IMG/VR virus record: IMGVR_UViG_2778261420_000018
Coordinates: 1-16,216 of that record
DNA length: 16,216 bases
Origin: a virus
Taxonomy: Duplodnaviria > Heunggongvirae > Uroviricota > Caudoviricetes
Reading direction: 5' to 3' (one strand)
Of the stretch, positions 215 to 14,902 are shown piece after piece. The notes beneath the pieces are model-generated. The model did not search any database. It was not told where the DNA came from and saw only the letters and a program-made list of their open reading frames with translations. The translations under genes and the position numbers were made by a program. Within the stretch, counting starts at the first letter, position 1. Each line of letters opens with the position of its first letter.

Positions 215-242
215 ATCAAAAAACCCGCTCAATGGCGGGTTT
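215..242 (-). terminator. Rho-independent terminator closing the 262..1059 gene
   Basis: Perfect 8-bp stem aaacccgc/gcgggttt (221-228 / 235-242) with 6-nt loop tcaatg; on the minus strand the hairpin is followed by TTTTTTG. It lies about 20 nt after the stop codon at 262-264. Confidence 0.6.
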
Positions 243-261
243 AATTAATGAGGTAATAACC

Positions 262-1059: not shown

Positions 1060-1065
1060 AGAAGA

Positions 1066-1293
1066 CTAACCCTTCTTCTTAGTACTCAATCCCTTAATAT
1101 TGGCTGCGAAAGCCTTTTGCACATCAGCGTTGTTGCGATTCAAAACCATCGAACCATTACTATCAATGAAAAACTTGTCACTTTCATGCTTAGCTTCTTT
1201 TCCATCACACATGGAAGCTATATCTGCAATTTTTTTGATGATCTTCTCAGGTGAGAGGATCGCGCGAGCGGCAAGTGTTAGATATTTCGGCAT
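1066..1293 (-). CDS. Hypothetical small protein, 75 aa (MPKYLTLAARAILSPEKIIKKIADIASMCDGKEAKHESDKFFIDSNGSMVLNRNNADVQKAFAANIKGLSTKKKG); first gene of a two-gene cassette
   Basis: Internal ATG at 1293..1291 is preceded by a strong SD (GGAGGGGAG, 5 nt spacing). The longer ORF to 1350 would add a hydrophobic N-terminus (MCAYFVCVLFVFYLL...) but its ATG lacks a properly spaced SD, so the start is ambiguous. Confidence 0.55.
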   Translation of the reverse strand: MPKYLTLAARAILSPEKIIKKIADIASMCDGKEAKHESDKFFIDSNGSMVLNRNNADVQKAFAANIKGLSTKKKG

Positions 1294-1471
1294 GCTCCCC
1301 TCCGTTAACAGATAAAAAACAAAAAGCACACAAACAAAGTATGCGCACATCCTAACCTATGTGGCTAACAACCACTTTCTTTTATAAGATGAGTGTATTA
1401 CCTAAAGGGTAACTCGGCAATAGCAGAATAGTTTTAGCAAGGTAAAACCGATGGTCTTTCGCTCAACTTAC

Positions 1472-1500
1472 GACAAAAGATAGCCCGCTCAGCAGCAGGC
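1472..1500 (-). terminator. Candidate tR'-like intrinsic terminator downstream of the Q-like gene
   Basis: On the minus strand GCCTGC-TGCTGA-GCGGGC (6-bp stem including one G-U pair, 6-nt loop) is followed by UAUCUUUUGU. Position matches lambda PR'/tR' logic. Weak stem, hence low confidence. Confidence 0.3.
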
Positions 1501-1553
1501 TTTGTTTAGTTTGCCATCGTGTACAAAATCAGCAAAATATCAGATTTACACGA

Positions 1554-1582
1554 AATATACGCGATTTAATTGACTTTTGCAA
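1554..1582 (-). promoter_or_regulatory. Candidate late promoter (PR'-like), minus strand: TTGCAA - 17 bp - TATATT
   Basis: -35 TTGCAA at 1582..1577 and -10 TATATT at 1559..1554 with a 17-bp spacer, overlapping the 3' end of the Q-like gene and about 50 nt upstream of the candidate terminator. Analogous to lambda PR' -> 6S RNA -> tR'. Confidence 0.35.
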
Positions 1583-2261
1583 TAACCCGCCGCGAAAAGG
1601 TCGCTTTTTGTTGCGATCTTGTTTTCATGGTATAAATCAAAGATTCGTTGTCGAGGTTCTTAAAAATGTCGCACATATCACGCCAGTAGTGCGCATAATT
1701 GTGGCTCCAGTTGTCTGACTTAACTCCACACAGTCTGGCAAGTTCCTGTCGCTGGTAGACGTCACACCCAGTAATCCTCCCCCTGACATCCTGCGCCGCC
1801 AGCCAGATTAATTTCTTCAGACGCTCAAGCGTTTTCCCTGTAATTTTTCTGGTGCCAAAATGCACCTGAAACTTATCCCACGCCCATTTCGCAATGACCA
1901 CCTGATAATCCCAACTCGGATTTTCACTGTATACCCACAGTACCCATGCCTTCTGATGCTCTTCAAGAGACAGAACGGCGCGTCGCCATGATGATGTCGA
2001 AAACTCAACCGGACTGACCAGGGCAATTGATGAACCTTTCGCCAGCGATTGCTTTCCCGGGATCGGTGGATTATCCAGCGTTACCATTTTTCCAGTGACC
2101 TTATCGCGGTACCGGATTTTTTTACGTCTGTAACGCCCTGTATCAAACATGGCATTCTCCTGCCAGGCTTCAAGCTGACCTTTTGTTGCCCCACTCAAAT
2201 CGGCGGTGGCGATAATGAGCTGCTCACGAACAAACTGTAAATACTGGTTATTCATGCGCAC
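1566..2261 (-). CDS. Putative late-gene antiterminator, Q-like (about 229 aa)
   Basis: Sits immediately downstream of rusA at the end of the early-right operon, the canonical Q slot. A likely ATG start at 2255..2253 overlaps the rusA stop as ATGA; the ORF-track start at 2261 is GTG. Candidate PR'/tR' follow it. My recollection is that Q-like antiterminators of cryptic E. coli lambdoid prophages are of this size and type; not verified. Confidence 0.5.
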   Translation of the reverse strand: MRMNNQYLQFVREQLIIATADLSGATKGQLEAWQENAMFDTGRYRRKKIRYRDKVTGKMVTLDNPPIPGKQSLAKGSSIALVSPVEFSTSSWRRAVLSLEEHQKAWVLWVYSENPSWDYQVVIAKWAWDKFQVHFGTRKITGKTLERLKKLIWLAAQDVRGRITGCDVYQRQELARLCGVKSDNWSHNYAHYWRDMCDIFKNLDNESLIYTMKTRSQQKATFSRRVIAKVN

Positions 2262-2611
2262 TCCAGCTCTGTGATTTTTATCCCCAACCGACCACCAGGA
2301 ACAGGCAGTCCGCGCACAATATTGATTTCATCAAACTGCTCGTCGTCGATAAGCAACCCCGCATGTGTCAGTGCATCCAGTGGTGCTTTCAGAATATTGT
2401 CCAGGTCACGACGGCGCTTATCCGGTGGCTCTGCAATCACCTTTATCGCCAGCCGTCCGGACAGGTTTAATTTCAGCCGCTGCTCGCGAACAATTAGCGC
2501 CACATCCCGGCGATAACGCTCACCGGCTTTTGATACAAAATATGTGTTGTCACGACGTCGCCAGTAGGTGTTCACCGTTGGCGGATAAGGCAAAACAAAC
2601 TCTATACGCAT
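2252..2611 (-). CDS. rusA: Crossover junction endodeoxyribonuclease RusA (Holliday junction resolvase), 119 aa
   Basis: Clear similarity to E. coli RusA as I recall it: N-terminal LPYPPTVNTYW (RusA: LPWPPSNNRYY), the catalytic-region motif RRRDLDN, then K..DALT.AG...DD and GGRL..ITE. SD GAGG precedes the ATG. Confidence 0.9.
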   Translation of the reverse strand: MRIEFVLPYPPTVNTYWRRRDNTYFVSKAGERYRRDVALIVREQRLKLNLSGRLAIKVIAEPPDKRRRDLDNILKAPLDALTHAGLLIDDEQFDEINIVRGLPVPGGRLGIKITELECA

Positions 2612-2623
2612 CAGTAACCTCTT

Positions 2624-3619
2624 TTACCCAAGCACGCCGGTTGCAAAGGCGTGATCAAGAAAATGAAAAATTAAATCAACCTGGGAACCATGCTTTTCTT
2701 CGAATACCAGCGGATCCGCATGAAGCTCGTTGTGATGCTCCCGACACAGCGGTAGTGTGAAAATATCGTGGGATTTTGTTCCCATTCCACCCTGACCGTG
2801 GCCTATCAGATGGTGGGGATCATCAGCAGGCTTTCCACAACATGCACACGGCTGTGTCTTAACCCAGCGCGTGTACTTTTCATTAACCCAGCGGCGACGT
2901 TTTGGGCGTAACATAAAAGACTCCGGCGACTCTGGATCCACTTTCAGCGCCAGCACCTTTTTCGCTTTATCCTGGATAATGCTGGTGGCAGGAACCGAAG
3001 GAACAAGGTCACTCTCCCGGGTGACAGACGGCACAACAGGCTTCGGTAATCTCAGTGCCTTACGGGCTGCACTTTCCGGTAAGGCATCAGCCAGGTCATT
3101 ACGAGCCAGCCACCAGCACAGTTCCGGCATTGTCACAACGTGACTGTCATCAAAACCGAGATCCCGACGCACAACAGACAACGCCCAGCGGGCACAGTTA
3201 TCCGTTGCCATTGATTCCAGCCGTTCCGTGAACTGATCGCGCAGCTGGTTATCGCAGTGCCAGCACAGACGGATTGCGCCCGGAGCGTGTCGCATTGTGG
3301 TCATGTTCTCGCTGTGCCAGTTGGAATGAGGCCACTGACAGCCCTTTTCACGAAGTAACCAGCTTTCAAGACATTCCACGCCACCAGCACGACGGATCAC
3401 TGCCTCATTGCGGAACACGGCCCGAACGGCAGGATCATCCGCCAGCGGTTGTGATGCCGCCGGAACGGCACCACTGGCAAAAGATGAATAACGTTCCGGC
3501 TCAGGCTCCAGCAGGACACGCCCCTGCATAAACAGGGGCATCAGCTCTGAACCGGGCCTGAACAATACGATCCCCATACGCGGGGCAATTTCAGGGGTCA
3601 GTAGTGCTCTCACGGTCAC
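2624..3619 (-). CDS. DUF968-like prophage protein with C-terminal Cys/His (HNH-like) motif, 331 aa
   Basis: C-terminus CACCGKPADDPHHLIGHGQGGMGTKSHDIFTLPLCREHHNELH is a Cys/His-rich putative metal-binding motif, which I recall as typical of a conserved lambdoid family found between the replication genes and rusA/Q. GTG start at 3619; exact start uncertain. Confidence 0.65.
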   Translation of the reverse strand: MTVRALLTPEIAPRMGIVLFRPGSELMPLFMQGRVLLEPEPERYSSFASGAVPAASQPLADDPAVRAVFRNEAVIRRAGGVECLESWLLREKGCQWPHSNWHSENMTTMRHAPGAIRLCWHCDNQLRDQFTERLESMATDNCARWALSVVRRDLGFDDSHVVTMPELCWWLARNDLADALPESAARKALRLPKPVVPSVTRESDLVPSVPATSIIQDKAKKVLALKVDPESPESFMLRPKRRRWVNEKYTRWVKTQPCACCGKPADDPHHLIGHGQGGMGTKSHDIFTLPLCREHHNELHADPLVFEEKHGSQVDLIFHFLDHAFATGVLG

Positions 3620-3664
3620 CTCAGCGAACGGTATTGCATGAACGCAGAAGAAAAAATTCAGCCA

Positions 3665-3922
3665 TCACGCAGTAAACTCCTTCACCAGTATTTCAAACTG
3701 GCTTACCTGGCCTTCCAGTTCCGCCACGCAATCCACCAGCTCATCCACCGCCTTTTGTGTGCGGTGTTTTGCCAGCAGCAGATCACGCAGCGCCGGAGTA
3801 AGCTGCTTGCGGAGCGTATCCTTTGCCACGCTCGTTTTTTCCATCTGTTCAGCACAACGAAGCATCTCCTGCGCCTGCCGACGAAGTTGTTCCGGTGAAA
3901 CAGTGGTTGTTCTGTTATTCAA
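3665..3922 (-). CDS. Hypothetical small protein (85 aa), predicted helical/coiled-coil
   Basis: ORF in the operon; TTG start overlaps the DnaB-like stop (TTGA); GGAG lies about 10 nt upstream. An internal ATG (MLRCAEQ...) is an alternative start. Confidence 0.5.
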   Translation of the reverse strand: MNNRTTTVSPEQLRRQAQEMLRCAEQMEKTSVAKDTLRKQLTPALRDLLLAKHRTQKAVDELVDCVAELEGQVSQFEILVKEFTA

Positions 3923-5310
3923 AATAAACGCTCCGTTTTACTGCCCGACATGCGGTTATTGCTGTATCTGCGCGGATTGCCCGGCGTCATGGGTGTGGAA
4001 AGAACCCGGGCACTCTCCTGGTCCACTGGCAGAAAATGTCCGTTATGAAAACGCCGGTAAATGGTCCCGAGCGTGCCATTACGCTGTTTCGTGATGTTGA
4101 TTTCTGCTATGCCTCCGGCCTGCGTTTCCGGGTTGTATACCTCATCCCTGTAAAGCATCAGAATGATGTCGGCATCCGCCTCGATTTCCCCGGAGTTTTT
4201 CAGGTCCGAGTTCATGGGGCGTTTATTGGGTCTGGATTCCACGCCGCGGGAGAGCTGGCTCAGAGCAATCAGCGGAAAACCGCCGGATTTTGCCAGGCTT
4301 TTAAGTCCCTTTGAGATTTCCCCCACCGCAAGGTCGTGACGCCCCGTGCTGCGGGTTTTAATCAGGCCGAGGTAATCGACCACCACCAGCGCCGTTTCCG
4401 GGTGTTTCATCCAGTGGTGCTTCGTGGTTGCACATATCTCATCAATGGTCAGGTTTGCCTGGTCCACCATCCAGATATTACGCCCCGTCATTCGTCCCAC
4501 ACCCTGTGAGAAGCGTGCCCAGTCTTCGTCTTCAAAACGGGCAACAGACTTAAGACGGGATACCGGCATTCCACCGGCAGCAGACACCATACGTTCACCA
4601 ATCTGGATGTTCGCCATCTCCATGGTGAACAGAAGCACGCCATGCCCCTGCTCAGTCACCTTGTCGATGATGTCCAGCGCCAGTTCGGTTTTGCCCATTG
4701 ACGGACGAGCCGCAATAAATACCAGGTCGCCGGGCTCCATGCCGCCTGTTTTTGCGTCCAGTTCATCAATACCGGTCATCAGCATTCTGGATTTCTCCAG
4801 TCCCTGATTCCGGCATTCAACACGGTCGACCACTTCCGGAAGTACATCATCAATGTGAACAGGCTGAATGACGCCCTTTTCCATCGACAATGAGGCCATC
4901 ATGTTTTGAGCATCCTTCAGAGCATCTTCAGCTGCTTCACAGGTATGCGCATCACGTAATTTCTGCAGCGCCTCATTCAGTGTTTTTTCTGCATCACGCA
5001 ATGCGGCATTGCGCCGCAGCGCTGCAACATAGTGCTCCAGTGACGACTTCACCCAGGTTTTGCGCCCGGTATCAGTAATCACCGGGGCAAGTTCCGGCAT
5101 ATCATTGCACAGCAGCACAGGATCAATCGCACCTGAAACACGGGCCTGTCTGCAGATGCCTGTGTAGATATCCCGATACGCTCGTACAGAAAAAACGTCC
5201 GCCGGTAGTGTGGCCAGAATATCCATCACTTCATGATCTGCCCCTCGCAGAAAAAACGCGCCAATGACAGCGCCTTCCAGGTCATCGTTACGCCAGACAG
5301 GAGAAGTCAT
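3919..5310 (-). CDS. Replicative DNA helicase, DnaB-like (phage-encoded), 463 aa
   Basis: Walker A AARPSMGKTELAL; other conserved DnaB-type C-terminal segments (VVVDYLGLI, SQLSRGVESRPNKRPMNSDLKNSGEIEADADIILMLYRDEVY); SD GAGGTG; start overlaps the DnaC-like stop. Confidence 0.9.
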   Translation of the reverse strand: MTSPVWRNDDLEGAVIGAFFLRGADHEVMDILATLPADVFSVRAYRDIYTGICRQARVSGAIDPVLLCNDMPELAPVITDTGRKTWVKSSLEHYVAALRRNAALRDAEKTLNEALQKLRDAHTCEAAEDALKDAQNMMASLSMEKGVIQPVHIDDVLPEVVDRVECRNQGLEKSRMLMTGIDELDAKTGGMEPGDLVFIAARPSMGKTELALDIIDKVTEQGHGVLLFTMEMANIQIGERMVSAAGGMPVSRLKSVARFEDEDWARFSQGVGRMTGRNIWMVDQANLTIDEICATTKHHWMKHPETALVVVDYLGLIKTRSTGRHDLAVGEISKGLKSLAKSGGFPLIALSQLSRGVESRPNKRPMNSDLKNSGEIEADADIILMLYRDEVYNPETQAGGIAEINITKQRNGTLGTIYRRFHNGHFLPVDQESARVLSTPMTPGNPRRYSNNRMSGSKTERLF

Positions 5311-6194
5311 GCAGCCACACCTCTGATACGAGAACGATAGCTGGGCCAGTTAAACGACAACCAGTTGCGTCCCCCGTCTGTGATCCTGTCGGCAATGCGG
5401 GGGCTGATGAATGCCCACAACTCTTCCGGTGAAAGGTTGCTGATCAGGATGGTGGGCAGGATGCTTTCGTACCGGGCATTGATAATTTCCTGCAAAATAG
5501 CCATTTCAGCCGCGCTGCCAAACTGAACGCCGACTTCGTCGATGATCAGCAAATCCATTGACGCATAATGCTCAATAACTTCATCCGCTGTTTTTTCGCT
5601 GTCATTTCGCCAGCAGTTTTTCACAGCACGGGTAAGGCGCATCACATCAGTAATCTCCACACTAGCCAGATGGTTACGGATGATGTGTTTTGCCATAGCC
5701 ACAGCCAGATGATTTTTTCCAGTACCACAACTGCCTGTCAGAACAAGACTGGTACCGTTAGCCAGAACATCCTCCCAGCTCTCCGCATAGCGGCGGCAGG
5801 CAGCAAGATTTCTGGCTGCATCAGAGTTAATCTCCTGATAGTTTTCAAACTCACAGTCGCGAAACCTACAGGCAACACCAGCATTCTCAATCAGCACATC
5901 AGCTTTCATTGCAACCAGAGTCCGATGTGTCACATCCATTTCATCCACCAGACACTCCGGACAGCGGGAAATTTTTGAGGCAGCGCCCCCCTGCCGATCA
6001 TCCCACACCAGTATATGCGTACGATATTTACCGTGTTTTTCGCAGCATCCAACCCCTTCAGATTCCCGACAGGCACGGTAAGGCCATGGCTTTTCGCCAT
6101 TCTGAGCAAATGCAATCTCTGCCCGTAACTCATCCATTCGCGCCTGTAGTCTTGTTTGTTTCTCACGTTGGTCAATCGTCATCATCGCTGTCAC
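5307..6194 (-). CDS. Helicase loader, DnaC/IstB-like AAA+ ATPase, 295 aa
   Basis: Walker A GSCGTGKNHLAVAMA and Walker B LLIIDEVG; N-terminal Cys cluster (CCEKHGKY...CPEC). Sits between the O-like and DnaB-like genes. Confidence 0.85.
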   Translation of the reverse strand: MTAMMTIDQREKQTRLQARMDELRAEIAFAQNGEKPWPYRACRESEGVGCCEKHGKYRTHILVWDDRQGGAASKISRCPECLVDEMDVTHRTLVAMKADVLIENAGVACRFRDCEFENYQEINSDAARNLAACRRYAESWEDVLANGTSLVLTGSCGTGKNHLAVAMAKHIIRNHLASVEITDVMRLTRAVKNCWRNDSEKTADEVIEHYASMDLLIIDEVGVQFGSAAEMAILQEIINARYESILPTILISNLSPEELWAFISPRIADRITDGGRNWLSFNWPSYRSRIRGVAA

Positions 6195-6195
6195 C

Positions 6196-7188
6196 TCAGA
6201 ATGTCAATTTGTTACTGGATTTACCGAATTTGTCAGACATGGCTCCCAGGCCAGCCAGGACATCGACCTGTCGCTGTCGCCCACCTCCGTGAGCGGCTGG
6301 CTGTTGCCAGTAATCTTCGAAGTGACGATCGGGTCCAAAGAACGTCGCAGCCTGCTTCACGAACTGTGTGCCGGTATTTCCTGTAGCACGTACCCAGGCG
6401 GCATACCGCTTCACGCCATCAAGCATGGTCTCCGGTTTTATTCCCTCCCTGATACGGGCTTTCCAGGCTTTGAAGGCTGCTGACTTGGAATTGCCACCAG
6501 CACGTTTGGGATATTCCTGCCAGGCCTGTTCAAATTCCGGTGAATATTCCTGTCGGGCAGAACGCGCTGGCGCAGACGCGTCAGCGGATGCATCAATAGT
6601 GTTTTTAGTCTCCGTTGTAATCTCTGTAGTAATCTCTGTATTTGTATCAACATTCGGCGTATCCCCTGTTCCGTTATGACGTCGGGGGGTGTTCCGTTTT
6701 AACGTAATAGCTGTATCGCTGATTGCATTATTGCTGTTACTTTCTGGCGAAACAGAAGAAGGTGTGGTGATGGCCGCAATTGCCTGTGGGTTGATCCCGA
6801 CAAACAAAATATTGCTGCATTTCACCCCATCGAGCATTTCCACCGTGCGTAAATCCAGAGTAATAAACCCTGCATCGCGCAGACGCTTCAGCGCATCTGC
6901 GGTTTCCCTTTTCCCGAAACCAAACTGCTCAGCAAACGCCTGGTAGCTTCTTTGCAGTTTGTCGCCCTGAAAACGCTTGCGATATCCCAGCAACGCTCCG
7001 GTGTGCTCATCCCTGACCTCTGTCGGGCGGTACCAGTAAACGATCTCTGAAAGCAGAGCGATAGCCGTCGCATCCGGACGCCCACTGGGTAGTCGAATAT
7101 ATTTCCACCAGTTCGCAGGTGTAACATTGCCGGAAATATTAATTTGACCAATAGCCATAACTTCCGGTGTGGGGGCGTAACGGCTCAT
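6196..7188 (-). CDS. Replication initiation / replisome organiser protein (lambda O-like N-terminal region, TEITTEITTE linker, C-terminal DnaT-like domain), 330 aa
   Basis: Strong SD AAGGAGG; start overlaps the upstream gene stop; central low-complexity linker encoded by tandem DNA repeats; C-terminal EFEQAWQEYPKR...KAWKARI resembles the DnaT/primosome C-terminal domain often fused to phage replication initiators. Confidence 0.75.
   Translation of the reverse strand: MSRYAPTPEVMAIGQINISGNVTPANWWKYIRLPSGRPDATAIALLSEIVYWYRPTEVRDEHTGALLGYRKRFQGDKLQRSYQAFAEQFGFGKRETADALKRLRDAGFITLDLRTVEMLDGVKCSNILFVGINPQAIAAITTPSSVSPESNSNNAISDTAITLKRNTPRRHNGTGDTPNVDTNTEITTEITTETKNTIDASADASAPARSARQEYSPEFEQAWQEYPKRAGGNSKSAAFKAWKARIREGIKPETMLDGVKRYAAWVRATGNTGTQFVKQAATFFGPDRHFEDYWQQPAAHGGGRQRQVDVLAGLGAMSDKFGKSSNKLTF
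6611..6698. repeat. Iteron-like direct repeats inside the O-like gene (candidate replication origin)
   Basis: Perfect tandem 12-mer GTAATCTCTGTA x2 (6617-6640) followed by a partial copy; GTTCCGTT repeated at 6668-6675 and 6691-6698; TCCGTTGTA at 6611. In lambda the ori iterons lie inside O in the inter-domain linker. Confidence 0.35.
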
Positions 7189-7484
7189 ACAACCTCCTTC
7201 CGCGGCATGAGAATTGTGTAGCCACGCGCAGGTTGTAGTCTGGCTTTTGCATCAATAGTAAGCGTTGCAATTTTTCGGATATGAAGATAACCAGCTCTTT
7301 CCAGTGCCAGGGTTTCCCTGAATATCGCTTGCTTAGAACAACAGCAGAAATCAGCAAGCACCTGATGATCAATAACTCTCTCGCCTTCACCGTCTGAAGA
7401 ACCCGACATCAAAACACGCAACATAATCAGGCGCTGAATCGGGTTATCGAAAGCACATCCGCACACAAACTGAAAACAGTTCAC
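7185..7484 (-). CDS. Hypothetical protein (99 aa), possible winged-helix DNA-binding protein
   Basis: ORF coupled on both sides (ATGA overlaps at 7481-7484 and 7185-7188); the segment VIDHQVLADFCCCSKQAIFRETLALERAGYLHI looks like an HTH. Confidence 0.55.
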   Translation of the reverse strand: MNCFQFVCGCAFDNPIQRLIMLRVLMSGSSDGEGERVIDHQVLADFCCCSKQAIFRETLALERAGYLHIRKIATLTIDAKARLQPARGYTILMPRKEVV

Positions 7485-7705
7485 GCCACACCTCCCAGAC
7501 GCTTAAACATTTTTCCAGACAGAAATACCGCCAGAGGGTAACTGATGGTGTAGCTACGCCCCTGTAGTTCGCACACGACTTTCTGGCTTTCAGCGTTGAC
7601 TAGGCAAACCCGCAGAACGTGGCCGTTGCTGGTGGCAAACCACTGCCCCACACGGGGGCAACGGTTGTATCGGTGATACAGGGAATTAACGACGCGGCGA
7701 ATCAT
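7481..7705 (-). CDS. Hypothetical small protein (74 aa; MIRRVVNSLYHRYNRCPRVGQWF...)
   Basis: Best start is the ATG at 7705..7703, preceded by GGAGGT with 6-nt spacing and overlapping the upstream stop (ATGA). The ORF-track start at 7720 lacks an SD. Confidence 0.5.
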   Translation of the reverse strand: MIRRVVNSLYHRYNRCPRVGQWFATSNGHVLRVCLVNAESQKVVCELQGRSYTISYPLAVFLSGKMFKRLGGVA

Positions 7706-8064
7706 GGGCGCACCTCCCATTGATTACGACGGAAAACAGTGTGATTCAGGTTGGTCTCAGCCTCATGGAATGCTTCAATGCAGCTCTCGTAGTACCGCAT
7801 TGTGCGCAGACTTAACCCAAGCTGAAGCATCATCAGACCATCAAGGGTGATGTAATAACCACGCAGGGAGTCACCGTAGATGTGATAAGTACCCGGTATG
7901 AAATTGCGGGTAAAAAACTCGCGTGAGCAGTTCAGATACTCGATTTTGTCGACGATGTTCTGGTGCATGCGCTTAAAGTGGCAGGCAACATGCAGGGAGA
8001 AAATAACGGCCTTGCCGTTGACAACTTCAATTTTCAGGTATGGGGAAGTTGGGACTGTAGCCAT
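7702..8064 (-). CDS. Hypothetical protein (120 aa from MATVPTSPYLKIEVV...); the ORF could extend to 8364 (220 aa)
   Basis: Internal ATG at 8064..8062 has a GGAGG SD 8 nt upstream. The upstream 100 codons lie in a GC-rich stretch where three frames are open and the ATG at 8364 has no SD. Confidence 0.5.
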   Translation of the reverse strand: MATVPTSPYLKIEVVNGKAVIFSLHVACHFKRMHQNIVDKIEYLNCSREFFTRNFIPGTYHIYGDSLRGYYITLDGLMMLQLGLSLRTMRYYESCIEAFHEAETNLNHTVFRRNQWEVRP

Positions 8065-8448
8065 GATGGCAGCCTCCGTATGCAATGGATAACTTCCACC
8101 ACCGGAGGTGCAAATCTCGCTGGTGGCGGACTGAACAGGGTTTGCACTACCGGCGCATACGGAAACCGGCGAGCCTTTCGGCTCCCCTGCCCAGCCCACC
8201 ATAATTCTGGCGTGCGCGAGCATGAACGATAAAAAAGACGCTGGCGCGTCATATATCGCCGTATGCAATTCCGGGGTGCAAATCCCGGCACCCGCTTTAT
8301 AAGGTGCCTGAACAGTGTAACGTCCCGAAATTGCAGAATCAATATTTGGTCTTGAAATGATCATATAGCTGCTGATATCTTTAGAACTGTTCTTGGATGT
8401 TTCGGAACCGTTTTATGCGAAACAGCTCCCCGTTATTGATGTTGAGTG

Positions 8449-8474
8449 AGCCGGGTTACTCCCGGCTTTTTTTT
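8449..8474 (+). terminator. Strong plus-strand intrinsic terminator, antisense to the early-right operon, abutting the rha stop codon
   Basis: agccggg (8449-8455) / loop ttact / cccggct (8461-8467), followed by T8 (8467-8474). On the minus strand the hairpin is preceded by A8 and not followed by a U-run, so it is oriented for plus-strand transcripts. Confidence 0.55.
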
Positions 8475-9181
8475 CACCGCTGCCAACCAATAACCTGAAA
8501 TAACCCCATTTTCGGGTGATACCAGCGAGTCCCTCGCGGTTCTGCTTCCTCCATAACCCGATAAAAAGCAGCCATAAACGGTTCCACAGCAACAATTGCG
8601 CGACGTGACAACAATCCGTCCGGCGTCATGAACTCATGGGTGTCTGTAGGAATTTGATAAGCGTTCACCAGATTGCGGCATTTATCATCTGACAAACCGG
8701 TTTTCGCTTTCAGTTGGCGATATCCGGCATAGCCCTCACGAATGGTGCCCTTTTTGATTTGCTCAACTGTTTCGGCAACGTGGCTGACTTTTTCTTCCAC
8801 CTGAGTGATCCGTTTCTGCTGACGAACTGCTTCAAGAGCCATCGCGGCAACCATTTCGATTTCGCTCATTGGCTTACGGATCTGTTCTTCCAGTTCGCGC
8901 CAGCGATCTACCAGGCGAGCAGTGAATTCAGGACAGAGCTGTGCGACGACAATGATGCTGTCGCGCTTACCTTGTTCTCCTTCAAACAGGTAATGCTCAT
9001 ATTGAACTTTAAAACCTAAGTTATTGATTCTTTCGGAAACCTCAATTTGAGGAGACCGGACAACGCCACCTTTGGCTAATGTTTCAATAGTGCGTTTCAC
9101 ATTGTCATGACGTTTACCCACCAGCTCTGCAATTTCAACGCTGGTCATGGATACTTTGCCGTTAAAAATTGCGATGTTCAT
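8474..9181 (-). CDS. rha: Phage regulatory protein Rha (N-terminal Rha domain), 235 aa
   Basis: N-terminal signature SVEIAELVGKRHDNVKRTIETL (Rha-family xxGKRHDNVxR motif); SD AGGAGA 6 nt upstream; start overlaps the cro-like stop (ATGA). Confidence 0.8.
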   Translation of the reverse strand: MNIAIFNGKVSMTSVEIAELVGKRHDNVKRTIETLAKGGVVRSPQIEVSERINNLGFKVQYEHYLFEGEQGKRDSIIVVAQLCPEFTARLVDRWRELEEQIRKPMSEIEMVAAMALEAVRQQKRITQVEEKVSHVAETVEQIKKGTIREGYAGYRQLKAKTGLSDDKCRNLVNAYQIPTDTHEFMTPDGLLSRRAIVAVEPFMAAFYRVMEEAEPRGTRWYHPKMGLFQVIGWQR

Positions 9182-9468
9182 TGTTTATCTCCTGCGTGTA
9201 TTCCATCCGCTCTGTGTGGTGAACTTGGATTTAGGCTTTTGCGTAACAAGTTAGGAATTCCATCTTCAGGGTGAGGATAAAGATCTGGCCTTAAGCCATG
9301 AGGCGTAACCTTCCATGCAACTACTTCACATACTCGTAAAACGAAACGAGCAGGAATTGTGCTTTTTGAAAACCACTGATTCACCGCTTGCGGCGTCACA
9401 CCAAGATTTCGCGCTATGGCATTTTGCGCAATTAATGCACGAAGTTTGTCGTAATCATTTCCTTCCAT
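9178..9468 (-). CDS. Cro-like / YdaS-family HTH regulator (96 aa), first gene of the early-right operon
   Basis: HTH LGVTPQAVNQWFSKSTIP followed by a ...GLRPDLYPHPED segment characteristic of YdaS/Cro-like prophage regulators; divergent from the CI-like repressor. Confidence 0.7.
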   Translation of the reverse strand: MEGNDYDKLRALIAQNAIARNLGVTPQAVNQWFSKSTIPARFVLRVCEVVAWKVTPHGLRPDLYPHPEDGIPNLLRKSLNPSSPHRADGIHAGDKQ

Positions 9469-9601
9469 AACAAAGCACCAATATTAACTTTATAAATCAA
9501 GAATACATCAAGTTTAAATTAACATGCAAGTTACAAAAGGATCGAATACACTAAAATCAAGTAAAGATTTATCCTTGTAAAGAAACCCACAGGATTTGGT
9601 C
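9469..9601. promoter_or_regulatory. Divergent immunity-region control region (PR/PRM-equivalent promoters and operators)
   Basis: 133-bp AT-rich intergenic region between divergent cro-like and cI-like genes; repeated motifs ATCAAG(T) at 9496-9501, 9507-9513 and 9556-9562, and ACATCAAGTT / ACATGCAAGTT. Exact operators not resolvable by eye. Confidence 0.5.
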
Positions 9602-10291
9602 ATGAAGAACGTCAAAAACACGGAAAATCGAATAGCCGCGATGCTGAAAGCAAAAGGATGGACTCAGGCTCAACTGGCCCGCAAGTTAGGTGTGAGTGCG
9701 CAATCAGTGCAGTACTGGACAACAGGAAAAACATTTCCACGGAGTGATAAGCTCGCGCATTTATCAGAGATTAGCGGTTATCCACAATCCTGGTTCTTAG
9801 GTGAAGACTCCTCACCAACCTTTTCCTCGCAAGAGAAACACCAGACAAGAACAGATAGCGTCGTGTTTAATGTCCTTGATGTTGAGTTTAGTTGCGGTGA
9901 TGGAACTCATGTCCGTGGTGACTTGATAGATGTAGTGCGCTCAATAGAACTTGATCCTGAATATGCCCGACGTCTTGTTGGAAATCGGGCATTCAAAAAT
10001 ATAGAAATAGGTAACGCCAGAGGAGACAGTATGGCTCCCACAATCTCACCTGGCGACCTTCTTTTTCTTGATAAGACAGTAACTTATTTTGATGGCGATG
10101 GTATTTATGCATTTTGTTTTGATGGAGAATGCTACGTGAAAAGGCTTCAGAAAATTGGAAGCAAAATCATGGTGTTATCTGATAACCCCAATTATCAACC
10201 ATGGAGCATCGAAAAAGAGGGGTTAGCTCTGCTTTATATCCAGTCTAAAGTGATCTCATCAGTACCATTCAACATAAACAGATTTGGTTAG
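9602..10291 (+). CDS. CI-like prophage repressor with N-terminal HTH and C-terminal S24 (LexA-like) self-cleaving peptidase domain
   Basis: HTH GWTQAQLARKLGVSAQSVQYW; C-terminal GDSMAPTI (Ser nucleophile motif) and YVKRL (Lys). SD AGGA 7 nt before the ATG at 9602; the ORF-track start at 9596 is TTG. Confidence 0.85.
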   Translation: MKNVKNTENRIAAMLKAKGWTQAQLARKLGVSAQSVQYWTTGKTFPRSDKLAHLSEISGYPQSWFLGEDSSPTFSSQEKHQTRTDSVVFNVLDVEFSCGDGTHVRGDLIDVVRSIELDPEYARRLVGNRAFKNIEIGNARGDSMAPTISPGDLLFLDKTVTYFDGDGIYAFCFDGECYVKRLQKIGSKIMVLSDNPNYQPWSIEKEGLALLYIQSKVISSVPFNINRFG

Positions 10292-10302
10292 TCTTTGATT
10301 TT

Positions 10303-10325
10303 AACGGGCTTTGCCCGTTTTTTTT
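10303..10325 (+). terminator. Rho-independent terminator after the cI-like gene
   Basis: aacgggc / ttt / gcccgtt hairpin followed by a T8 run, 12 nt after the stop codon. Confidence 0.7.
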
Positions 10326-10355
10326 CTGCCTGAAATATACGATATCAATTTTTTC

Positions 10356-10384
10356 TTGACAGCCTATTTCCCAAAACATAATAT
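10356..10384 (+). promoter_or_regulatory. Near-consensus sigma70 promoter for the 10438-11138 cassette (TTGACA - 17 bp - TAATAT)
   Basis: TTGACA at 10356-10361, 17-bp spacer, TAATAT at 10379-10384, about 55 nt upstream of the ATG at 10438, directly after the cI terminator. Confidence 0.5.
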
Positions 10385-10437
10385 CGCACCATCAATTATA
10401 ACTTGATTTTATTCAATTTAAAATTGTTGGCGGATAT

Positions 10438-10899
10438 ATGAAGACACTAAAAGCAACTCCAGAAACAACTAATTTTATCAACTGCGGCTGTGTTACGCTT
10501 AAGGGCTTAGAACTTGATTCCTTTGCATTAAATATTGCAAATTTGCTAAGTGCTGTACGCACATTCCATCTTCTGGATTGTGCTCGCTCAAAGGAACTGG
10601 GCATTGAGGTAATGGAATTTATCCATGAATATGCTCTATCTGCTGCTTCTCCTGCACAACAAAAACAATCCTTCCCTGAAAGCTGGCTGGTTAACCTTCG
10701 CACCCAACGCGAAGCCTGCGGCTTAACAACCGCCGAACTCGCCAGGCTGCTCGATCTCGATGAAGAAATTATCATCCAGTGGGAGAGCGGAGAGTATGAA
10801 CCAACTATCAGTATGCTTATCCCACTGGCAAATATTCTTGGCTGCGATGCGATGTGGCTGTTAACTGGCGAAACGGCAGCAAAGGATATCTGCGCATGA
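10438..10899 (+). CDS. Hypothetical protein with C-terminal XRE-family HTH and an N-terminal ~85-aa domain of unknown function (153 aa)
   Basis: C-terminal GLTTAELARLLDLDEEIIIQWESGEYEPTISMLIPLANILGCDAMWLLTG is a classic Cro/C1-type HTH; the N-terminal domain is not recognised. Own promoter; AT-rich (about 37% G+C on a hand-counted line). Confidence 0.7.
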   Translation: MKTLKATPETTNFINCGCVTLKGLELDSFALNIANLLSAVRTFHLLDCARSKELGIEVMEFIHEYALSAASPAQQKQSFPESWLVNLRTQREACGLTTAELARLLDLDEEIIIQWESGEYEPTISMLIPLANILGCDAMWLLTGETAAKDICA

Positions 10900-11138
10900 A
10901 AAACTGTGATGCTTACCATATTTGTCTCATTGGTGAATTGCTTGATTTCATACAAAAAAGCACTGCGCGCAATAATAAAAATATAACATATGGTGATCTG
11001 GTAATAATTTCAGAGGATATAAAGAGCATCGCTCTTAAATTCAAGGGCGACGCGAGTATTGATGACGCTATTTACGCTTATCTTGCGAAAATAATTGACG
11101 GATCCAAAATCCAGCCTCTGGATGAACCTCGTCAGTGA
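10896..11138 (+). CDS. Hypothetical small protein (80 aa; MKNCDAYHICLIGELLDFIQKSTARNNKNITYGDLVIISEDIK...), translationally coupled to the preceding gene
   Basis: ATG at 10896 overlaps the upstream stop (ATGA); AAAGGA lies 9 nt upstream. Its 3' 71 nt overlap a convergent minus-strand ORF with a better SD, so one of the two may not be real. Confidence 0.45.
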   Translation: MKNCDAYHICLIGELLDFIQKSTARNNKNITYGDLVIISEDIKSIALKFKGDASIDDAIYAYLAKIIDGSKIQPLDEPRQ

Positions 11139-11295
11139 AAAACTCCTTTGATGAAGATGTGAACTGCTTCATAAACTTTACTTTATCTTCAGGTGAAACT
11201 ACCTGACGAATTAATGCGGAGATAGCAACTTTGTGCCAAATTAATTCTTTTTTGAGTTCTGAAATCTCTTTTTCGAGTTGCTCTGCGTTAATCAT
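11068..11295 (-). CDS. Hypothetical small charged protein (75 aa), predicted helical/coiled-coil
   Basis: Near-perfect SD GGAGGA 3 nt before the ATG (11295..11293). Convergent with, and overlapping, the 3' end of 10896..11138. Confidence 0.5.
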   Translation of the reverse strand: MINAEQLEKEISELKKELIWHKVAISALIRQVVSPEDKVKFMKQFTSSSKEFFTDEVHPEAGFWIRQLFSQDKRK

Positions 11296-11474
11296 TTATC
11301 CTCCATTGAGAGCTGAATTGAAAATGGGGACCAACACGCGGCTACGTGTGGTCGTGCGCCGGACACGGATAAGCATCCGGTAACTGATTATCAATCATTG
11401 CGGAAACAGTCTCAATATGAAAACACTTCTGAGACTCGCTATATAGCAGGACATATAAGTCAGCTGAGGAAGCC

Positions 11475-11840
11475 ATGAAAAAGTTCGAAAACATAATTGT
11501 TCTCCATGTTGATGACTTTGATTATACAAACCCGGAACTTCTCCCGGAGGTTGTAAAGGCAATAGATGTTGCCGATATAGTGATTAGAGGAAAGAGAATT
11601 GTCAAAAACAGGCTCGCATGCACTTCAGAAGCAATGACAGAAACAACCTCACAGCAAGATAATTACGAAGGCATTTGTCTGGAGCCTGATTCATTTGCGG
11701 TAAATGTTTATCATTTATTGCATGCAACACAGGTATTACATATGTCCAGTAATCACGAAACGAAAACACTCGGCAGCGAAATTCTGAATTTTGCATGTGA
11801 GTATGCAAAAACTGCTGCCGAAAAAGAATTAGCGCAATAA
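11475..11840 (+). CDS. Hypothetical protein (121 aa), first gene of the early-left operon
   Basis: ATG preceded by GAGGAAG; a TATATA -10-like element lies upstream; no recognisable family. Confidence 0.55.
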   Translation: MKKFENIIVLHVDDFDYTNPELLPEVVKAIDVADIVIRGKRIVKNRLACTSEAMTETTSQQDNYEGICLEPDSFAVNVYHLLHATQVLHMSSNHETKTLGSEILNFACEYAKTAAEKELAQ

Positions 11841-11918
11841 CAATAAATATGCCCTGAACGTTTATTGCAGTTTTATCGCCGGGGAATGTTACAATCTTAA
11901 TCCACAGGAGGCTTTATT

Positions 11919-12032
11919 ATGACTTTTATAAAGAATATGGCATCACACAAGACCGCCTGCCTTATTGCACAATACGGTGAAAATTACATGCATATTGCCT
12001 GCTTATTTCTGCGTAAAGCATACGAGAAATAA
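11919..12032 (+). CDS. Small ORF (37 aa; MTFIKNMASHKTACLIAQYGENYMHIACLFLRKAYEK)
   Basis: Not in the ORF track (below 60 aa). AGGAGG SD 7 nt before the ATG at 11919; stop 3 nt before the next gene start. Confidence 0.4.
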   Translation: MTFIKNMASHKTACLIAQYGENYMHIACLFLRKAYEK

Positions 12033-12035
12033 CAA

Positions 12036-12395
12036 ATGACACATGAACCCATTAATACATATCGTCGCCGTATAGCTGTTGCAGCACTCCATCGAATAAA
12101 ACGTAAAACAGGTGGTGATCTGCTTATTGTTGACCTTCCGGATGGGAACATTACGACCATAGAAATAACAGAACAGTTTATAACCCAGTTGCTGTTGCGC
12201 TTTGAAGATATTACCCGTGGTGAATTGGGTCGAGTGGAGGGTGAAACAGAATTCCGAACTGCATACCAGAATGCTATCGGGATTAATCAACATACTGAAT
12301 ACCAGGCTGAAACCGGAAAGTTAATTATAGACAACCTTTTACAAGAGGTTATTGATTACGCGAAAGAAAAATATATCAGCGGAGGAATTAACTGA
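12036..12395 (+). CDS. Hypothetical protein (119 aa)
   Basis: ORF coupled to the downstream gene (ATGA overlap at 12393-12397). Confidence 0.6.
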   Translation: MTHEPINTYRRRIAVAALHRIKRKTGGDLLIVDLPDGNITTIEITEQFITQLLLRFEDITRGELGRVEGETEFRTAYQNAIGINQHTEYQAETGKLIIDNLLQEVIDYAKEKYISGGIN

Positions 12396-12610
12396 TGGCT
12401 AATTTATCCCCTGTATCTGTTGTACACGAAAAAGTGCAGATCGTTATGACAATTGAAAATGGCCAGGTAACAGATGTCTGCAAAGTCCGCGATGGAGAGC
12501 TGATTGCCAGCATGGATACATTCATATGGCTGGCAGAAAGAGCGGGGTATCAGATAACAGCACCTGCTCAGGAGGAAACCAGTGACATTAACAGCAACAC
12601 GAATTCCTGA
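12395..12610 (+). CDS. Hypothetical small acidic protein (71 aa)
   Basis: GGAGG SD 9 nt before the ATG at 12395; overlaps the next gene by 29 nt. Confidence 0.55.
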   Translation: MANLSPVSVVHEKVQIVMTIENGQVTDVCKVRDGELIASMDTFIWLAERAGYQITAPAQEETSDINSNTNS

Positions 12611-12800
12611 GTGGGTCCACCAGCAGGCGTTGCTGGTCCTGCGGCGGTACAGATGCCGACGTATATTCCCGCATCGGATACAGCGCAACGGATATCTCAG
12701 TCTGAAGGTTAACCGTCGCTGGCGGCTGTTATCGAAAGACGACGGCCGGAACTGGGAAGTAATGAGTCATGAACGTTATTCGGGAGAAATAAAGAAATGA
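12582..12800 (+). CDS. Hypothetical small basic protein (72 aa), GTG start; weak RelE/ParE-like C-terminal pattern
   Basis: GGAGG SD 6 nt before the GTG at 12582. C-terminal LKVNRRWRLLSKDDGRNWEVMSHERY loosely resembles the RelE/ParE pattern; unverified. Confidence 0.5.
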   Translation: MTLTATRIPEWVHQQALLVLRRYRCRRIFPHRIQRNGYLSLKVNRRWRLLSKDDGRNWEVMSHERYSGEIKK

Positions 12801-13189
12801 TCGACAACCGCACCGCCAGCGCCATTGACCAGGCATTACAGAAACATGATACACCCATCGGCCCGTTATTTTTTGTAACACGCCACGGAAGAACAAAAAA
12901 ATGCCTCACCCGAAAAACGGCAATTCGTTACCTGGCATTCTTTATGACCACCCGCGCTTTTGAACGTTCAGGATTCCGACAGCGCCATCCTGACAAGCGT
13001 TTTATCTTCAACGGGAATGAGATATGGAAACGAGGAGAATCAACCACAGAGTATACCCGCGCACACCAGCGAACAATCAGACGACTGCGCAGACTCATCG
13101 CCAGGAAACAGTATACAGAAAAATGGTTCAGAAAATATGACACATGGAGCGCCGGATATTACGAACTGATGGCAACAAAACCATTCTGA
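12797..13189 (+). CDS. Hypothetical highly basic protein (130 aa; Arg/Lys-rich, likely nucleic-acid binding)
   Basis: ATGA overlap with the upstream stop; GGAGA 9 nt upstream; many R/K residues (RRLRRLIARKQYTEKWFRKYD). Confidence 0.55.
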   Translation: MIDNRTASAIDQALQKHDTPIGPLFFVTRHGRTKKCLTRKTAIRYLAFFMTTRAFERSGFRQRHPDKRFIFNGNEIWKRGESTTEYTRAHQRTIRRLRRLIARKQYTEKWFRKYDTWSAGYYELMATKPF

Positions 13190-13431
13190 CGTAAACGAAA
13201 TTAACCATGACGCAATTAAATAAGGCAAGCCGAATACATCAGGAGGACCAGGAACATTTATTTCAAAATAGTTATATCACTGGCAATTATCGCATGCATT
13301 TACGGATTAATCGTTTCGGCCCTCATATCAATGAAGGATACGGTAGCAGTGATTTCTGGTTTTGCTCTGGCGTGTCTGACCCCGCCGTGCATTTGTGCCA
13401 TTTATAAGGGGCTTTCTTTCACCAAGGATAA

Positions 13432-13765
13432 ATGATGAAAAAAATTATTTTTTCTTTAGCCATTGTTCTGCCTGCCATTGGCCTTGTCGGTTGTGATCGT
13501 GTTGAGCCTGGTAATGTGGGCATCAAAGTCAACAAACTTGACGACGACAAAGGCGTCGGTGAAGTGGTCGGTGTTGGTCGCTACTGGACAGGCTGATGCG
13601 ATTCGCACAAAAGCCCAGGCTGAAGCCGATGCTATTCGTTTACGCGGTGAAGCTCTGCGTCAGAACCCCGGTGTTGTGGAGCTGGAAGCCATCAATAAAT
13701 GGAACGGCACGCTGCCGCAATACATGACCAGTGGTGCCAATACACCATTTATCCAGGTTAAATAA
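13432..13765 (+). pseudogene. Disrupted lipoprotein gene: lipoprotein signal plus SPFH/band-7-like N-terminus (13432-13596) and SPFH-like C-terminus in a different frame (to 13765); apparent internal deletion with frameshift
   Basis: Frame 1: MMKKIIFSLAIVLPAIGLVGC (lipobox) DRVEPGNVGIKVNKLDDDKGVGEVVGVGRYWTG, then stop at 13594-13596. Frame 2 continues ...QADAIRTKAQAEADAIRLRGEALRQNPGVVELEAINKWNGTLPQYM..., which looks like the C-terminus of band-7/SPFH proteins. Together about 110 aa, whereas intact SPFH proteins are typically about 250-300 aa. Confidence 0.45.
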
Positions 13766-13806
13766 CTTAATATGCCCGGCAGACCGTCGGGCTAAGGGAA
13801 AAGCAG

Positions 13807-14178
13807 ATGAACACTCATAATACTCAACCGCAAATAATGAACTATGACCCAAATCTGACGTCATGCGGACGCATGGCAAAACAAACCGTTCGATTAACTT
13901 TCGGGCTATGGGAATACCGCGAAACATTCGAAGTCACTGTCGGTGGCAACCTGACCGGACTCGATGTTATCAGTTGCGCTATTGAAAGCCTGTACGCAAC
14001 GCTGCCTTATGAAGAAGTCGAGGATGAGCGTACAGGGGAAACAGATATCATGGCCACCATTAATATTGGCGAACTGATATGCCAGGATGAAGACCTGTCC
14101 GGAGAGCTCTGGCTTGCCGGGATGCTTATCTCAGCAGAAATTATCAGTATTGAACCCGCTACAAACATACGGCTCTGA
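13807..14178 (+). CDS. Hypothetical strongly acidic protein (123 aa)
   Basis: AAGGGA SD; D/E-rich sequence (YEEVEDERTGETD, QDEDLSGELW). Confidence 0.6.
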   Translation: MNTHNTQPQIMNYDPNLTSCGRMAKQTVRLTFGLWEYRETFEVTVGGNLTGLDVISCAIESLYATLPYEEVEDERTGETDIMATINIGELICQDEDLSGELWLAGMLISAEIISIEPATNIRL

Positions 14179-14209
14179 AGTTCTCGCTATTCAGAGAGCA
14201 GGAGAAAAA

Positions 14210-14452
14210 ATGTTCGCTTTGATTAATCAGGGACAACTGTATACCGACAATGCCGGTTACCCGGTAAAAATTGTTCGCTGCATAAACAACACTGTGTTGT
14301 ACAGAAGAATGGATGGGCGAACACAGTCAGTAAAAATAAACGATTTCAATGAACTGTTTGAACGGATTGATCACCAGGAATACCGACAAATTCTGGCAGA
14401 AACAGAGCAGGAAGCTCATCTGAAAAAATTACGGGCCATGAAAAGGAAGTAA
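14210..14452 (+). CDS. Hypothetical small protein (80 aa; MFALINQGQLYTDNAGYPVKIVRCINNTVLYRRMDGRTQSVKINDF...)
   Basis: GGAGA SD 4 nt before the ATG at 14210. The ORF-track upstream extension to 14087 overlaps the previous gene and lacks an SD. Confidence 0.55.
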   Translation: MFALINQGQLYTDNAGYPVKIVRCINNTVLYRRMDGRTQSVKINDFNELFERIDHQEYRQILAETEQEAHLKKLRAMKRK

Positions 14453-14455
14453 AGA

Positions 14456-14602
14456 ATGAATAAAGCGTTTGAGCTATGGGTGCGCCAGCGTTACGGCAAT
14501 CGCTATGACCTGACGCGAGATGTTGACGGCTTCTACTGTCGTGAAATTGTGAAACGAATGTTTGAAGTGTGGTGCCACTGCCGTGGGCTGAGTGTTGTGT
14601 GA
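14456..14602 (+). CDS. Small ORF (48 aa; MNKAFELWVRQRYGNRYDLTRDVDGFYCREIVKRMFEVWCHCRGLSVV), Cys/His-containing
   Basis: Not in the ORF track; AAGGAAG SD 8 nt before the ATG at 14456; fills the gap before the xis-like gene. Confidence 0.4.
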   Translation: MNKAFELWVRQRYGNRYDLTRDVDGFYCREIVKRMFEVWCHCRGLSVV

Positions 14603-14610
14603 GGTAATGT

Positions 14611-14847
14611 ATGAGCAATGTGATTCAACTGGCTCCCAATGAATGGGTTTGTGAAAGCGTTCTTATCGCAATTACCGGGCTCAAACCAGGCACAATTCTT
14701 CGGGCCCGGAAAGAATGCTGGATGGTTGGAAGAGAGTATATTCACGTATCACCAGACGGTAATCCAAAGCCTTCCAGTGAATGTATGTATAACAGAAAAG
14801 CAATAGATGCCTGGGTCGCCTCAATGAAAAACAAACAACCCAGGTGA
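14611..14847 (+). CDS. Excisionase-like protein (Xis / AlpA-type winged helix), 78 aa
   Basis: Small gene immediately upstream of int; ITGLKPGTILRARKE resembles the HTH of AlpA/Xis-type excisionases; GAGGT SD. Confidence 0.6.
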   Translation: MSNVIQLAPNEWVCESVLIAITGLKPGTILRARKECWMVGREYIHVSPDGNPKPSSECMYNRKAIDAWVASMKNKQPR

Positions 14848-14902
14848 TTTAATATCATGAAATATGTAAGCTCGTATCGCTCTTGGGCGTCTGGAGGTAT
14901 CA

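Follow-up and report, generated by a model that had tools for sequence, protein, structure and literature searches.

A known IsrK/C4 cassette and a predicted plus-strand antisense RNA unit side by side in the early operon of a lambdoid Escherichia coli prophage

What is a strong intrinsic terminator doing inside a phage early operon when it faces against every gene around it, and what occupies the DNA next to it? Both questions are raised by a stretch of 16,216 nucleotides (IMG/VR record IMGVR_UViG_2778261420_000018, positions 1 to 16,216; hereafter the window), which represents the immunity and early region of a lambdoid Escherichia coli prophage. The terminator in question lies on the plus strand (8448..8474), at the end of rha, a minus-strand gene of the rightward early operon, and the neighbouring segment covers positions 8065-8364. 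The answer that we favour, and that we think probable if narrowly so, is that the locus holds two adjacent and separate elements: on the minus strand a known IsrK/C4 cassette, and, in the spacer that separates this cassette from rha, a small plus-strand transcription unit. The claims about these two elements differ in strength, and we treat them in turn.

The IsrK/C4 cassette in 8065-8364

It is essentially certain that the segment 8065-8364 is a known IsrK plus C4 cassette with antirepressor control of the immI type. On the minus strand it opens with the isrK promoter, which we read from the sequence at 8314..8342 (-35 TTGATT 8342..8337, 17 nt, -10 TACACT 8319..8314, start 8307). This promoter scores 8/12, below the threshold of our scan, and ends 6 nt ahead of the start of the IsrK model; its activity has been demonstrated for Gifsy-1 only (PMC4825925), and in every context the cassette begins, on its upstream side, immediately 5' of this -35. 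IsrK itself (8231..8307, minus strand; Rfam RF01394) matches its model from end to end (positions 1-77 of 77; 63.7 bits against a gathering threshold of 50), contains a copy of the regulatory target, b1 (8266..8259), and finishes with its own intrinsic terminator (8250..8237 plus a U run), which was found independently in our terminator scan. Downstream of this terminator and on the same strand come the C4 antisense RNA (8119..8206; Rfam RF01695; 81.7 bits against a gathering threshold of 45, model positions 1-87 of 87), whose antisense loop, b', lies at 8163..8155, and then an open reading frame (ORF) for a Rha-like regulator or antirepressor of 120 aa (7702..8064, starting at ATG 8064 behind a GGAGG Shine-Dalgarno sequence, SD). 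The second target, b2 (GCATACGG, 8073..8083), overlaps that SD (8077..8073). The Rha-like ORF matches phrog_995 (1.9e-57) and the Rha-like phrog_518, with a Pfam Phage_pRha hit of 27.9 bits that is below the cut-off; the a1b1-like family RF03163 gave a weak match at 8268-8320 (16.7 bits).

The case for function rests on covariation. We compared about 100 different cassettes, taken from IMG/VR and from related loci. Their SD-proximal 8-mer takes five forms (GCATACGG, GTCAACGG, GCTCAAGG, GTTATCGG and GATCAAGG), and every one of them has its reverse complement at a constant position in the C4 loop and, in most cassettes, a direct copy at a constant position in IsrK. This tally was made over 193 cassette occurrences, with 35 that have no recognisable SD-plus-ATG pattern left unscored. 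Such three-way covariation of b1, b' and b2 is strong evidence of a functional cassette, and the five co-varying types imply heteroimmune classes of antirepressor switch among E. coli prophages.

The cassette is thus of the P1 immI / P4 CI / Gifsy-1 isrK type and belongs to already known biology. Its family membership and the b1/b'/b2 complementarity are observed here; for the direction of regulation we rely on P1 and Gifsy-1 (PMC4825925). By this analogy, the minus-strand promoter would make IsrK, ending at its own terminator, and read-through would continue into C4 and the Rha-like ORF. The b' loop of C4 would then pair with b2 over the GGAGG, blocking translation of the Rha-like ORF, and b1 in IsrK would serve as a decoy or activator copy of the 8-mer. 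Of 5426 complete E. coli genomes, more than 1300 contain such cassettes, as do 371 phage records, among them Stx phages, SfV, P1-like phages, phiKO2 and APSE, and at least two of the records already annotate it: F039 carries the label 'C4 antisense RNA' together with 'isrK', and APSE-3 lists a C4-family small RNA (sRNA).

The identification changes the picture given by an earlier, sequence-only reading of the window, which had described a GC-rich stretch of about 400 bp without a convincing gene and had taken 8065-8364 for a leader or non-coding DNA upstream of a candidate antisense RNA. The GC content is high (0.62-0.65) only at about 8100-8250, with an AT-rich 8300-8450 (0.38-0.39), and the segment contains two full-length RNA genes, IsrK and C4, which lie on the other strand and are unrelated to that antisense RNA.

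Two features of the arrangement can be noted here. The IsrK terminator (8231-8250) and C4 sit between the early promoter and the replication genes, within the early operon, so rightward early transcription must pass both. Some viral contigs carry the cassette in tandem, in two or three copies (L103, at 6500 and 7156; L106; L109, with three copies; L120; L128; L160), spaced by 656 bp (or 863 bp) and with the starts of the ash frame, described below, coupled to the preceding Rha-like ORF via GGGAGG-ATGA.

The cassette is also overlaid by a long open frame. This frame (220 aa, 7702..8364, minus strand) is annotated by PGAP as 'ash family protein', with a Pfam Phage_ASH match on residues 16-108; its first 100 codons span the isrK promoter, IsrK and C4, and the Phage_ASH match coincides exactly with the IsrK plus C4 RNAs. 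All 41 distinct cassette variants keep this frame open (the other sense frames are open in 22/41 and 0/41), and although its length varies (99-102 codons), it never loses register with the Rha-like ORF. No SD precedes ATG 8364 in this prophage; in other contexts the frame has a GGGAGG SD and is coupled to the preceding ORF. In Gifsy-1, an ORF that spans the C4-like RNA is translated, and the antirepressor depends on this ORF for its own translation (PMC4825925). The universally open frame and the Gifsy-1 precedent make it likely that part of the 8065-8364 region is translated here too. Either the cassette region is both coding and non-coding, or the Phage_ASH family is largely translated conserved RNA. 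Complete translation of the 220-aa ORF, which the sequence-only reading had set against its antisense RNA, may take place, the frame being open in all variants; it would not, in any case, exclude an antisense RNA on the plus strand.

The wrong-way terminator and its candidate promoter

The plus-strand terminator (8448..8474) consists of a stem (GAGCCGGG / CCCGGCTT, with the arms AGCCGGG at 8449-8455 and CCCGGCT at 8461-8467), a 5-nt loop (TTACT) and a T run at 8467-8474, with the position and polarity that the sequence-only reading had given to it. A strict scan of both strands of the whole window (at least 7 perfect pairs, at least 5 of them G-C, and at least 6 T) returned it as one of three terminators, against none in 200 dinucleotide-preserving shuffles. 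Each of the other two lies directly past a gene stop on its own strand: one on the plus strand at 10303-10319, 12 nt past the cI stop, and one on the minus strand at about 222-241, following ORF 262-1059. Upstream of the stem at 8449-8467 there is no plus-strand gene or ORF for 8 kb, and all credible ORFs between 262 and 9468 are on the minus strand, so the opposition to the surrounding genes that had been noted earlier is real. The last T of the run (8474) doubles, on the opposite strand, as the first base of the stop codon of rha (8474-8476).

The minus-strand sequence past the hairpin (CACUCAACAUC) has no U tract, so that the hairpin is not a sense terminator. The terminator and its T run are present in all three variants of the spacer, with 6-8 T in every copy. 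The distant Rha homologues (from Yersinia, Providencia, Proteus, Budvicia and others) have no hairpin, and the next gene overlaps or abuts their stop, which argues that the hairpin is not part of rha. The terminator on the plus strand is genuine.

The spacer to which it belongs, 130 bp from the rha stop to just 5' of the isrK -35, is a separate piece. It is carried by 237 of the 5426 E. coli genomes (about 4% of complete genomes), including enterohaemorrhagic E. coli of types O111, O157 and O55 as well as ST131, and it comes as variants A (204), B1 (28) and B2 (5). Carriers include E. coli O111:H- 11128 (NC_013364.1, about 2,433,072-2,433,204), CE10 (NC_017646.1, about 2,510,039-2,510,263) and TD225-C4. 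Where the isrK promoter stands in other contexts (DUF4222, tandem cassettes), there is neither the spacer nor an antisense terminator, and in Stx1 phages ant directly follows rha, without a spacer.

Within this spacer lies a candidate sigma-70 promoter with an extended -10 (8352..8381, plus strand; -35 TTGAAA 8352-8357, 18-nt spacer, -10 TATCTT 8376-8381). The hexamers and their spacing are as the sequence-only reading had listed them, and a TG at 8373-8374 precedes the -10, giving a score of 9/12 plus TG, equal to that of the lambda oop promoter Po in the same scan. It is the sole promoter-like plus-strand site within 1 kb upstream of the terminator, with 67 nt between the end of its -10 (8381) and the start of the stem (8448), and it is detected in variant B too. 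Between A and B, 13 of the 14 bases of the promoter elements (-35, TG and -10) are conserved and the 18-nt spacing is kept, compared with an identity of 8/16 inside the promoter spacer and 46/94 in the remaining intergenic piece (Fisher p = 0.0015, on what is effectively one A-versus-B comparison).

From the positions of the promoter and the terminator we predict an antisense RNA of about 87 nt (8388..8474, plus strand), with a length of 80-91 nt across the variants. At or near its predicted 5' end stands the invariant 10-mer GTTCTTGGAT (8389..8398, plus strand), conserved at 10/10 positions over A, B1 and B2, followed by some 50 nt that are roughly 50% identical; the body of the putative RNA as a whole is about 50% identical between variants, with indels. 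A second hairpin (GGAACCGTTT / AAACAGCTCC, 8404..8429), which we leave unassigned to a strand, follows in variant A, and B1 and B2 have hairpins of other sequence at its position. The predicted RNA folds with -25.1 kcal/mol (z = -2.3), and with z = -3.2 to -4.5 in the commoner variants; it would end in a tail of U7-8, and the B-type folds pair part of the 10-mer with the block that precedes the terminator. These are the features on which it was compared with Hfq-type trans-acting sRNAs, which combine an intrinsic terminator and a long U tail with a conserved, single-stranded seed.

A candidate promoter, a 10-mer and a terminator conserved against a background of about 50% identity form the pattern of a small RNA gene, and this is our preferred explanation of the terminator. 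With a genuine wrong-way terminator, no plus-strand ORF upstream of it and a conserved promoter-like site at a distance of 70-95 nt on its upstream side, a short antisense RNA is the most economical reading. The same three features bear out the antisense RNA of the sequence-only reading up to this point; the transcript itself is a prediction, for and against which we find the evidence about evenly balanced. The unit would thus comprise an extended -10 promoter back to back with the isrK promoter, a start near 8388 at the invariant 10-mer, an internal hairpin, and a strong terminator, the T run of which finishes at the stop codon of rha.

How might such an RNA act? The early promoter being repressed in a lysogen, the plus-strand promoter would be free and the RNA would accumulate. 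It would match, by full complementarity, the part of the rightward early transcript that leads from rha to the cassette, and could pair with this 87-nt junction in early read-through transcripts, in the manner of P22 sar and lambda OOP; the duplex could in turn lead to cleavage by RNase III, to altered downstream stability or to hindered initiation at the downstream ORF. Its promoter, convergent with early transcription, would be occluded by it or collide with it. The net effect would be a brake on the expression of the antirepressor and the replication genes, in lysogens or against superinfecting relatives. This proposed action is drawn by analogy with the systems just named. Going further, the spacer could provide a third RNA of the IsrK/C4 switch, an antisense sRNA expressed in the lysogen that, by pairing with rightward early read-through transcripts from its own phage or from superinfecting related ones, determines the threshold at which the antirepressor and the replication genes are expressed; we regard this extension as quite unlikely. 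In a bolder variant, the 5' block may pair with the 5' arm of the terminator and make of it a regulated attenuator, whose read-through would traverse rha and cro in antisense and then enter cI in sense orientation. The best-conserved two blocks in the spacer, GUUCUUGGAUGUU (8389-8401) and GAUGUUGAGUGAGC (8434-8451), are complementary on the plus strand only, with several G.U pairs; their pairing would involve the terminator 5' arm, and its consensus energy is weak (-4.6 kcal/mol).

Counterevidence and rival explanations

A number of observations weigh against a plus-strand RNA gene: (i) The promoter match by itself is no better than chance, as two sites of this quality were found in the 2.3-kb region where 2.4 are expected. 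Its -35 shares DNA with codons 3-4 of the ash frame and with the region upstream of the isrK promoter, the two -35 elements being 9 bp apart and the promoters back to back, and the conservation seen there may stem from the start of the ash frame (a conserved CATATG) or from the isrK upstream region. (ii) The three variants amount to effectively one deep comparison, A versus B, and the unit occurs at one junction only, in no forms other than A, B1 and B2. (iii) As to the covariation in related prophages that the sequence-only reading had looked to, the hairpin is kept in the three variants and its stem shows no compensatory change among them; RNAalifold on the three found no compensatory pairs, the non-homologous middle hairpins being impossible to superpose. 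(iv) It is on the minus strand that the second hairpin of variant A makes the better stem (10 pairs with G.U, z = -5.9), and the type-A polymorphisms GGAACC and CAGAGCC keep pairing on the minus strand only. Two natural variants, GAAG to GAGG and a C to T change in the terminator, give G.U on the plus strand and A.C on the minus. The G.U/A.C asymmetry and the z-scores are therefore contradictory as to the strand, B-type spacers and one terminator variant speaking for plus and type A for minus. (v) The predicted 5' end at 8388 falls 24 nt short of ATG 8364, on its upstream side, so that the RNA, unlike sar, would cover no ribosome-binding site. (vi) No Rfam family covers the plus-strand unit; a plus-strand search at a permissive threshold gave sub-threshold, terminator-driven matches only (sroD, 24.5 bits against 50; PrrF; BjrC1505). 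The isrK/O157, sar and C4 literature holds no report of a plus-strand RNA here, and a full-text search for the hairpin sequence returned no paper. We also found no inverted-repeat operators in the spacer.

Against this background two other explanations of the terminator have to be weighed. It could be an insulator and nothing else, stopping stray transcription from the AT-rich region behind the isrK promoter that would, if unblocked, cross rha and cro on the antisense side and reach cI in the sense direction; any product would be functionless. A strong and correctly oriented terminator in an AT-rich spacer, back to back with a promoter of the active type, agrees with this, as does the failure to find partners in trans: pairing of the candidate RNA with the IsrK-C4 leader was no better than in shuffles, and the window holds no second copy of the 10-mer or of its target at 0 mismatches, leaving a cis site only. 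Mere insulation, however, does not account for the hexamers, the 18-nt spacing, the 10-mer and the internal hairpin being kept across such diverged variants, and losing a stray promoter would be an easier course for selection than gaining a terminator; we judge it unlikely. Or there may be no plus-strand RNA at all, with the hairpins acting in the minus-strand early mRNA, as a 3' stabiliser or processing site of cro-rha or as a structured leader of the 220-aa ash-frame ORF, and with an incidental T run. This possibility, to which we give the same low weight, draws on the very stable minus-strand fold of the common type A and on the polymorphisms that preserve its second hairpin through G.U on that strand alone, as well as on an ash frame and ATG that are kept in all variants and on the chance-level promoter match. 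It has to contend with a run of A7-8 before the hairpin that has no known sense function and yet is kept at 6-8 in every copy, with the missing minus-strand U tract past the hairpin and the missing SD before ATG 8364, and with the B-type and terminator variants that favour pairing on the plus strand.

Two more readings can be set further back. A true counterpart of lambda OOP, that is, an oop homologue that destroys a cII-like mRNA, appears very improbable, although the likeness is easily stated: as with OOP, the candidate would be a short antisense RNA upstream of the replication genes and within the rightward early operon; its promoter-like site, of the extended -10 type and with the same score, and its strong intrinsic terminator resemble Po/oop in quality. 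In lambda, however, oop (700-777 of the locus) overlaps cII (which ends at 754) by about 55 nt, and the candidate overlaps the rha stop codon only; the upstream gene here is of the Ant/Rha type, not cII, and the CII-like gene lies elsewhere, on the plus strand at 10438-10899. The similarity to lambda oop comes to 13 nt of the terminator (score 16, against 13.5 with a standard deviation of 2.4 for shuffles, 17% of which reach the same score). Of the description 'OOP-like' in the sequence-only reading, a loose analogy of position survives, without similarity in sequence. That the plus-strand unit encodes a very small protein is scarcely credible: ATG 8397 does open a frame of 33 codons, but it has no SD, the frame crosses the terminator into the antisense strand of rha and is not conserved, and the ATG itself is missing from variant B2 (GGATTCTTGG). 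A plus-strand antisense RNA beside the known cassette stays our preferred reading of the spacer.

Precedents, setting and significance

For the layout of the putative antisense unit, P22 sar is a closer precedent than OOP. In both cases a small RNA, a predicted one here, is placed on the opposite strand where a regulator gene and an antirepressor-type ORF leave a gap: in the P22 record, sar (15021-15090) fills the gap between arc, which ends at 15022, and ant, which starts at 15091, and the sar promoter is inside ant, just as the candidate -35 is inside the next ORF here. The end of the terminator overlaps the stop of the upstream gene in P22 (15021 against arc 15022) as it does in this prophage (8474 against rha 8474-8476). 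The two differ in that our RNA is predicted and would start 24 nt upstream of an ATG that has no SD, leaving the ribosome-binding site uncovered, and there is no similarity to the sar sequence (local score 10, where shuffles average 13.3). Another hairpin of this kind was seen in phiP27-type phages (L005 and L006, 1196-1230), where GGCCGG-9-CCGGCC plus TTTCTTATTT stands directly past the stop codon of rha and 52 nt ahead of a gene for a Bro-N antirepressor; it is non-homologous to ours and has the same plus-strand (antisense) polarity. A weak promoter-like site (TTGATT-18-TATTGT with TGn, 8/12) lies inside the Bro-N gene, and a putative RNA starting there would cover the Bro-N SD and GTG, a true sar layout, closer than that of the unit described here; this is suggestive only.

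The cassette has its own precedents, among which the isrK-orf45(STnc1160)-anrP locus of Gifsy-1 in Salmonella stands out, its architecture and mechanism having been described by Hershko-Shalev et al. 2016 (PMC4825925), who themselves related it to P4 SeqA/CI. The two share the order of promoter, self-terminating IsrK, read-through C4/CI-like RNA and antirepressor-type gene, as well as the recurrence of IsrK sequence at the downstream ribosome-binding region, and the IsrK model is matched here over its full length. They differ in that the cassette described here is in the rightward early operon, in the interval between rha and the replication genes, and not beside a Q-like gene; the frame that crosses C4 lacks a stop and continues in register into the Rha-like ORF; the antirepressor is a short protein with a Rha domain; and the plus-strand unit lies just upstream. 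With P1/P7 immI (c4-icd-ant) and P4 CI the cassette shares the C4 family, a loop complementary to an SD-spanning site and to an upstream copy, and heteroimmune specificity types that co-vary. In contrast to those systems, it has no icd homologue, its upstream target copy is in a separately terminated sRNA, IsrK, and it is found in a lambdoid phage with a cI/cro switch.

The remainder of the window fits this setting. Positions 8040-8520 (481 bases compared) are identical to those of E. coli strain TD225-C4, whose prophage is integrated adjoining yecE/yecN. The rightward early operon, on the minus strand, begins with a cro-like gene (9178-9468), which is followed by rha (8474-9181), the IsrK/C4 region, the Rha-like ORF, two small ORFs and the replication genes, O-like and then DnaC-like and DnaB-like; the cI-type repressor gene (9596-10291) is on the plus strand. 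The second gene, a rha/roi-type regulator of the Ant/Rha family, matches Pfam Phage_pRha (40.2 bits) and phrog_63 (anti-repressor Ant), and its relatives carry the annotation Roi or Rha. Its last ~70 nt (8476-8548) are about 80% identical in DNA to the 3' ends of Ant/ORF6N-type genes from Klebsiella, Providencia and even Elizabethkingia phages, which suggests that its C-terminal module is widely exchanged.

What do these elements mean for the biology of lambdoid prophages? The cassette being already known, recognising it here amounts to the correction of an annotation and not to a discovery: pipelines label the region either 'hypothetical' or 'ash family protein'. The plus-strand unit is, as judged from its sequence features, a plausible and so far undescribed addition to the antisense RNAs of phages. 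If this RNA is real, it would represent a second natural sar-type layout in lambdoid phages, and would add an antisense layer to the prophage-induction switch in many pathogenic E. coli, including those that carry Stx-converting phages.

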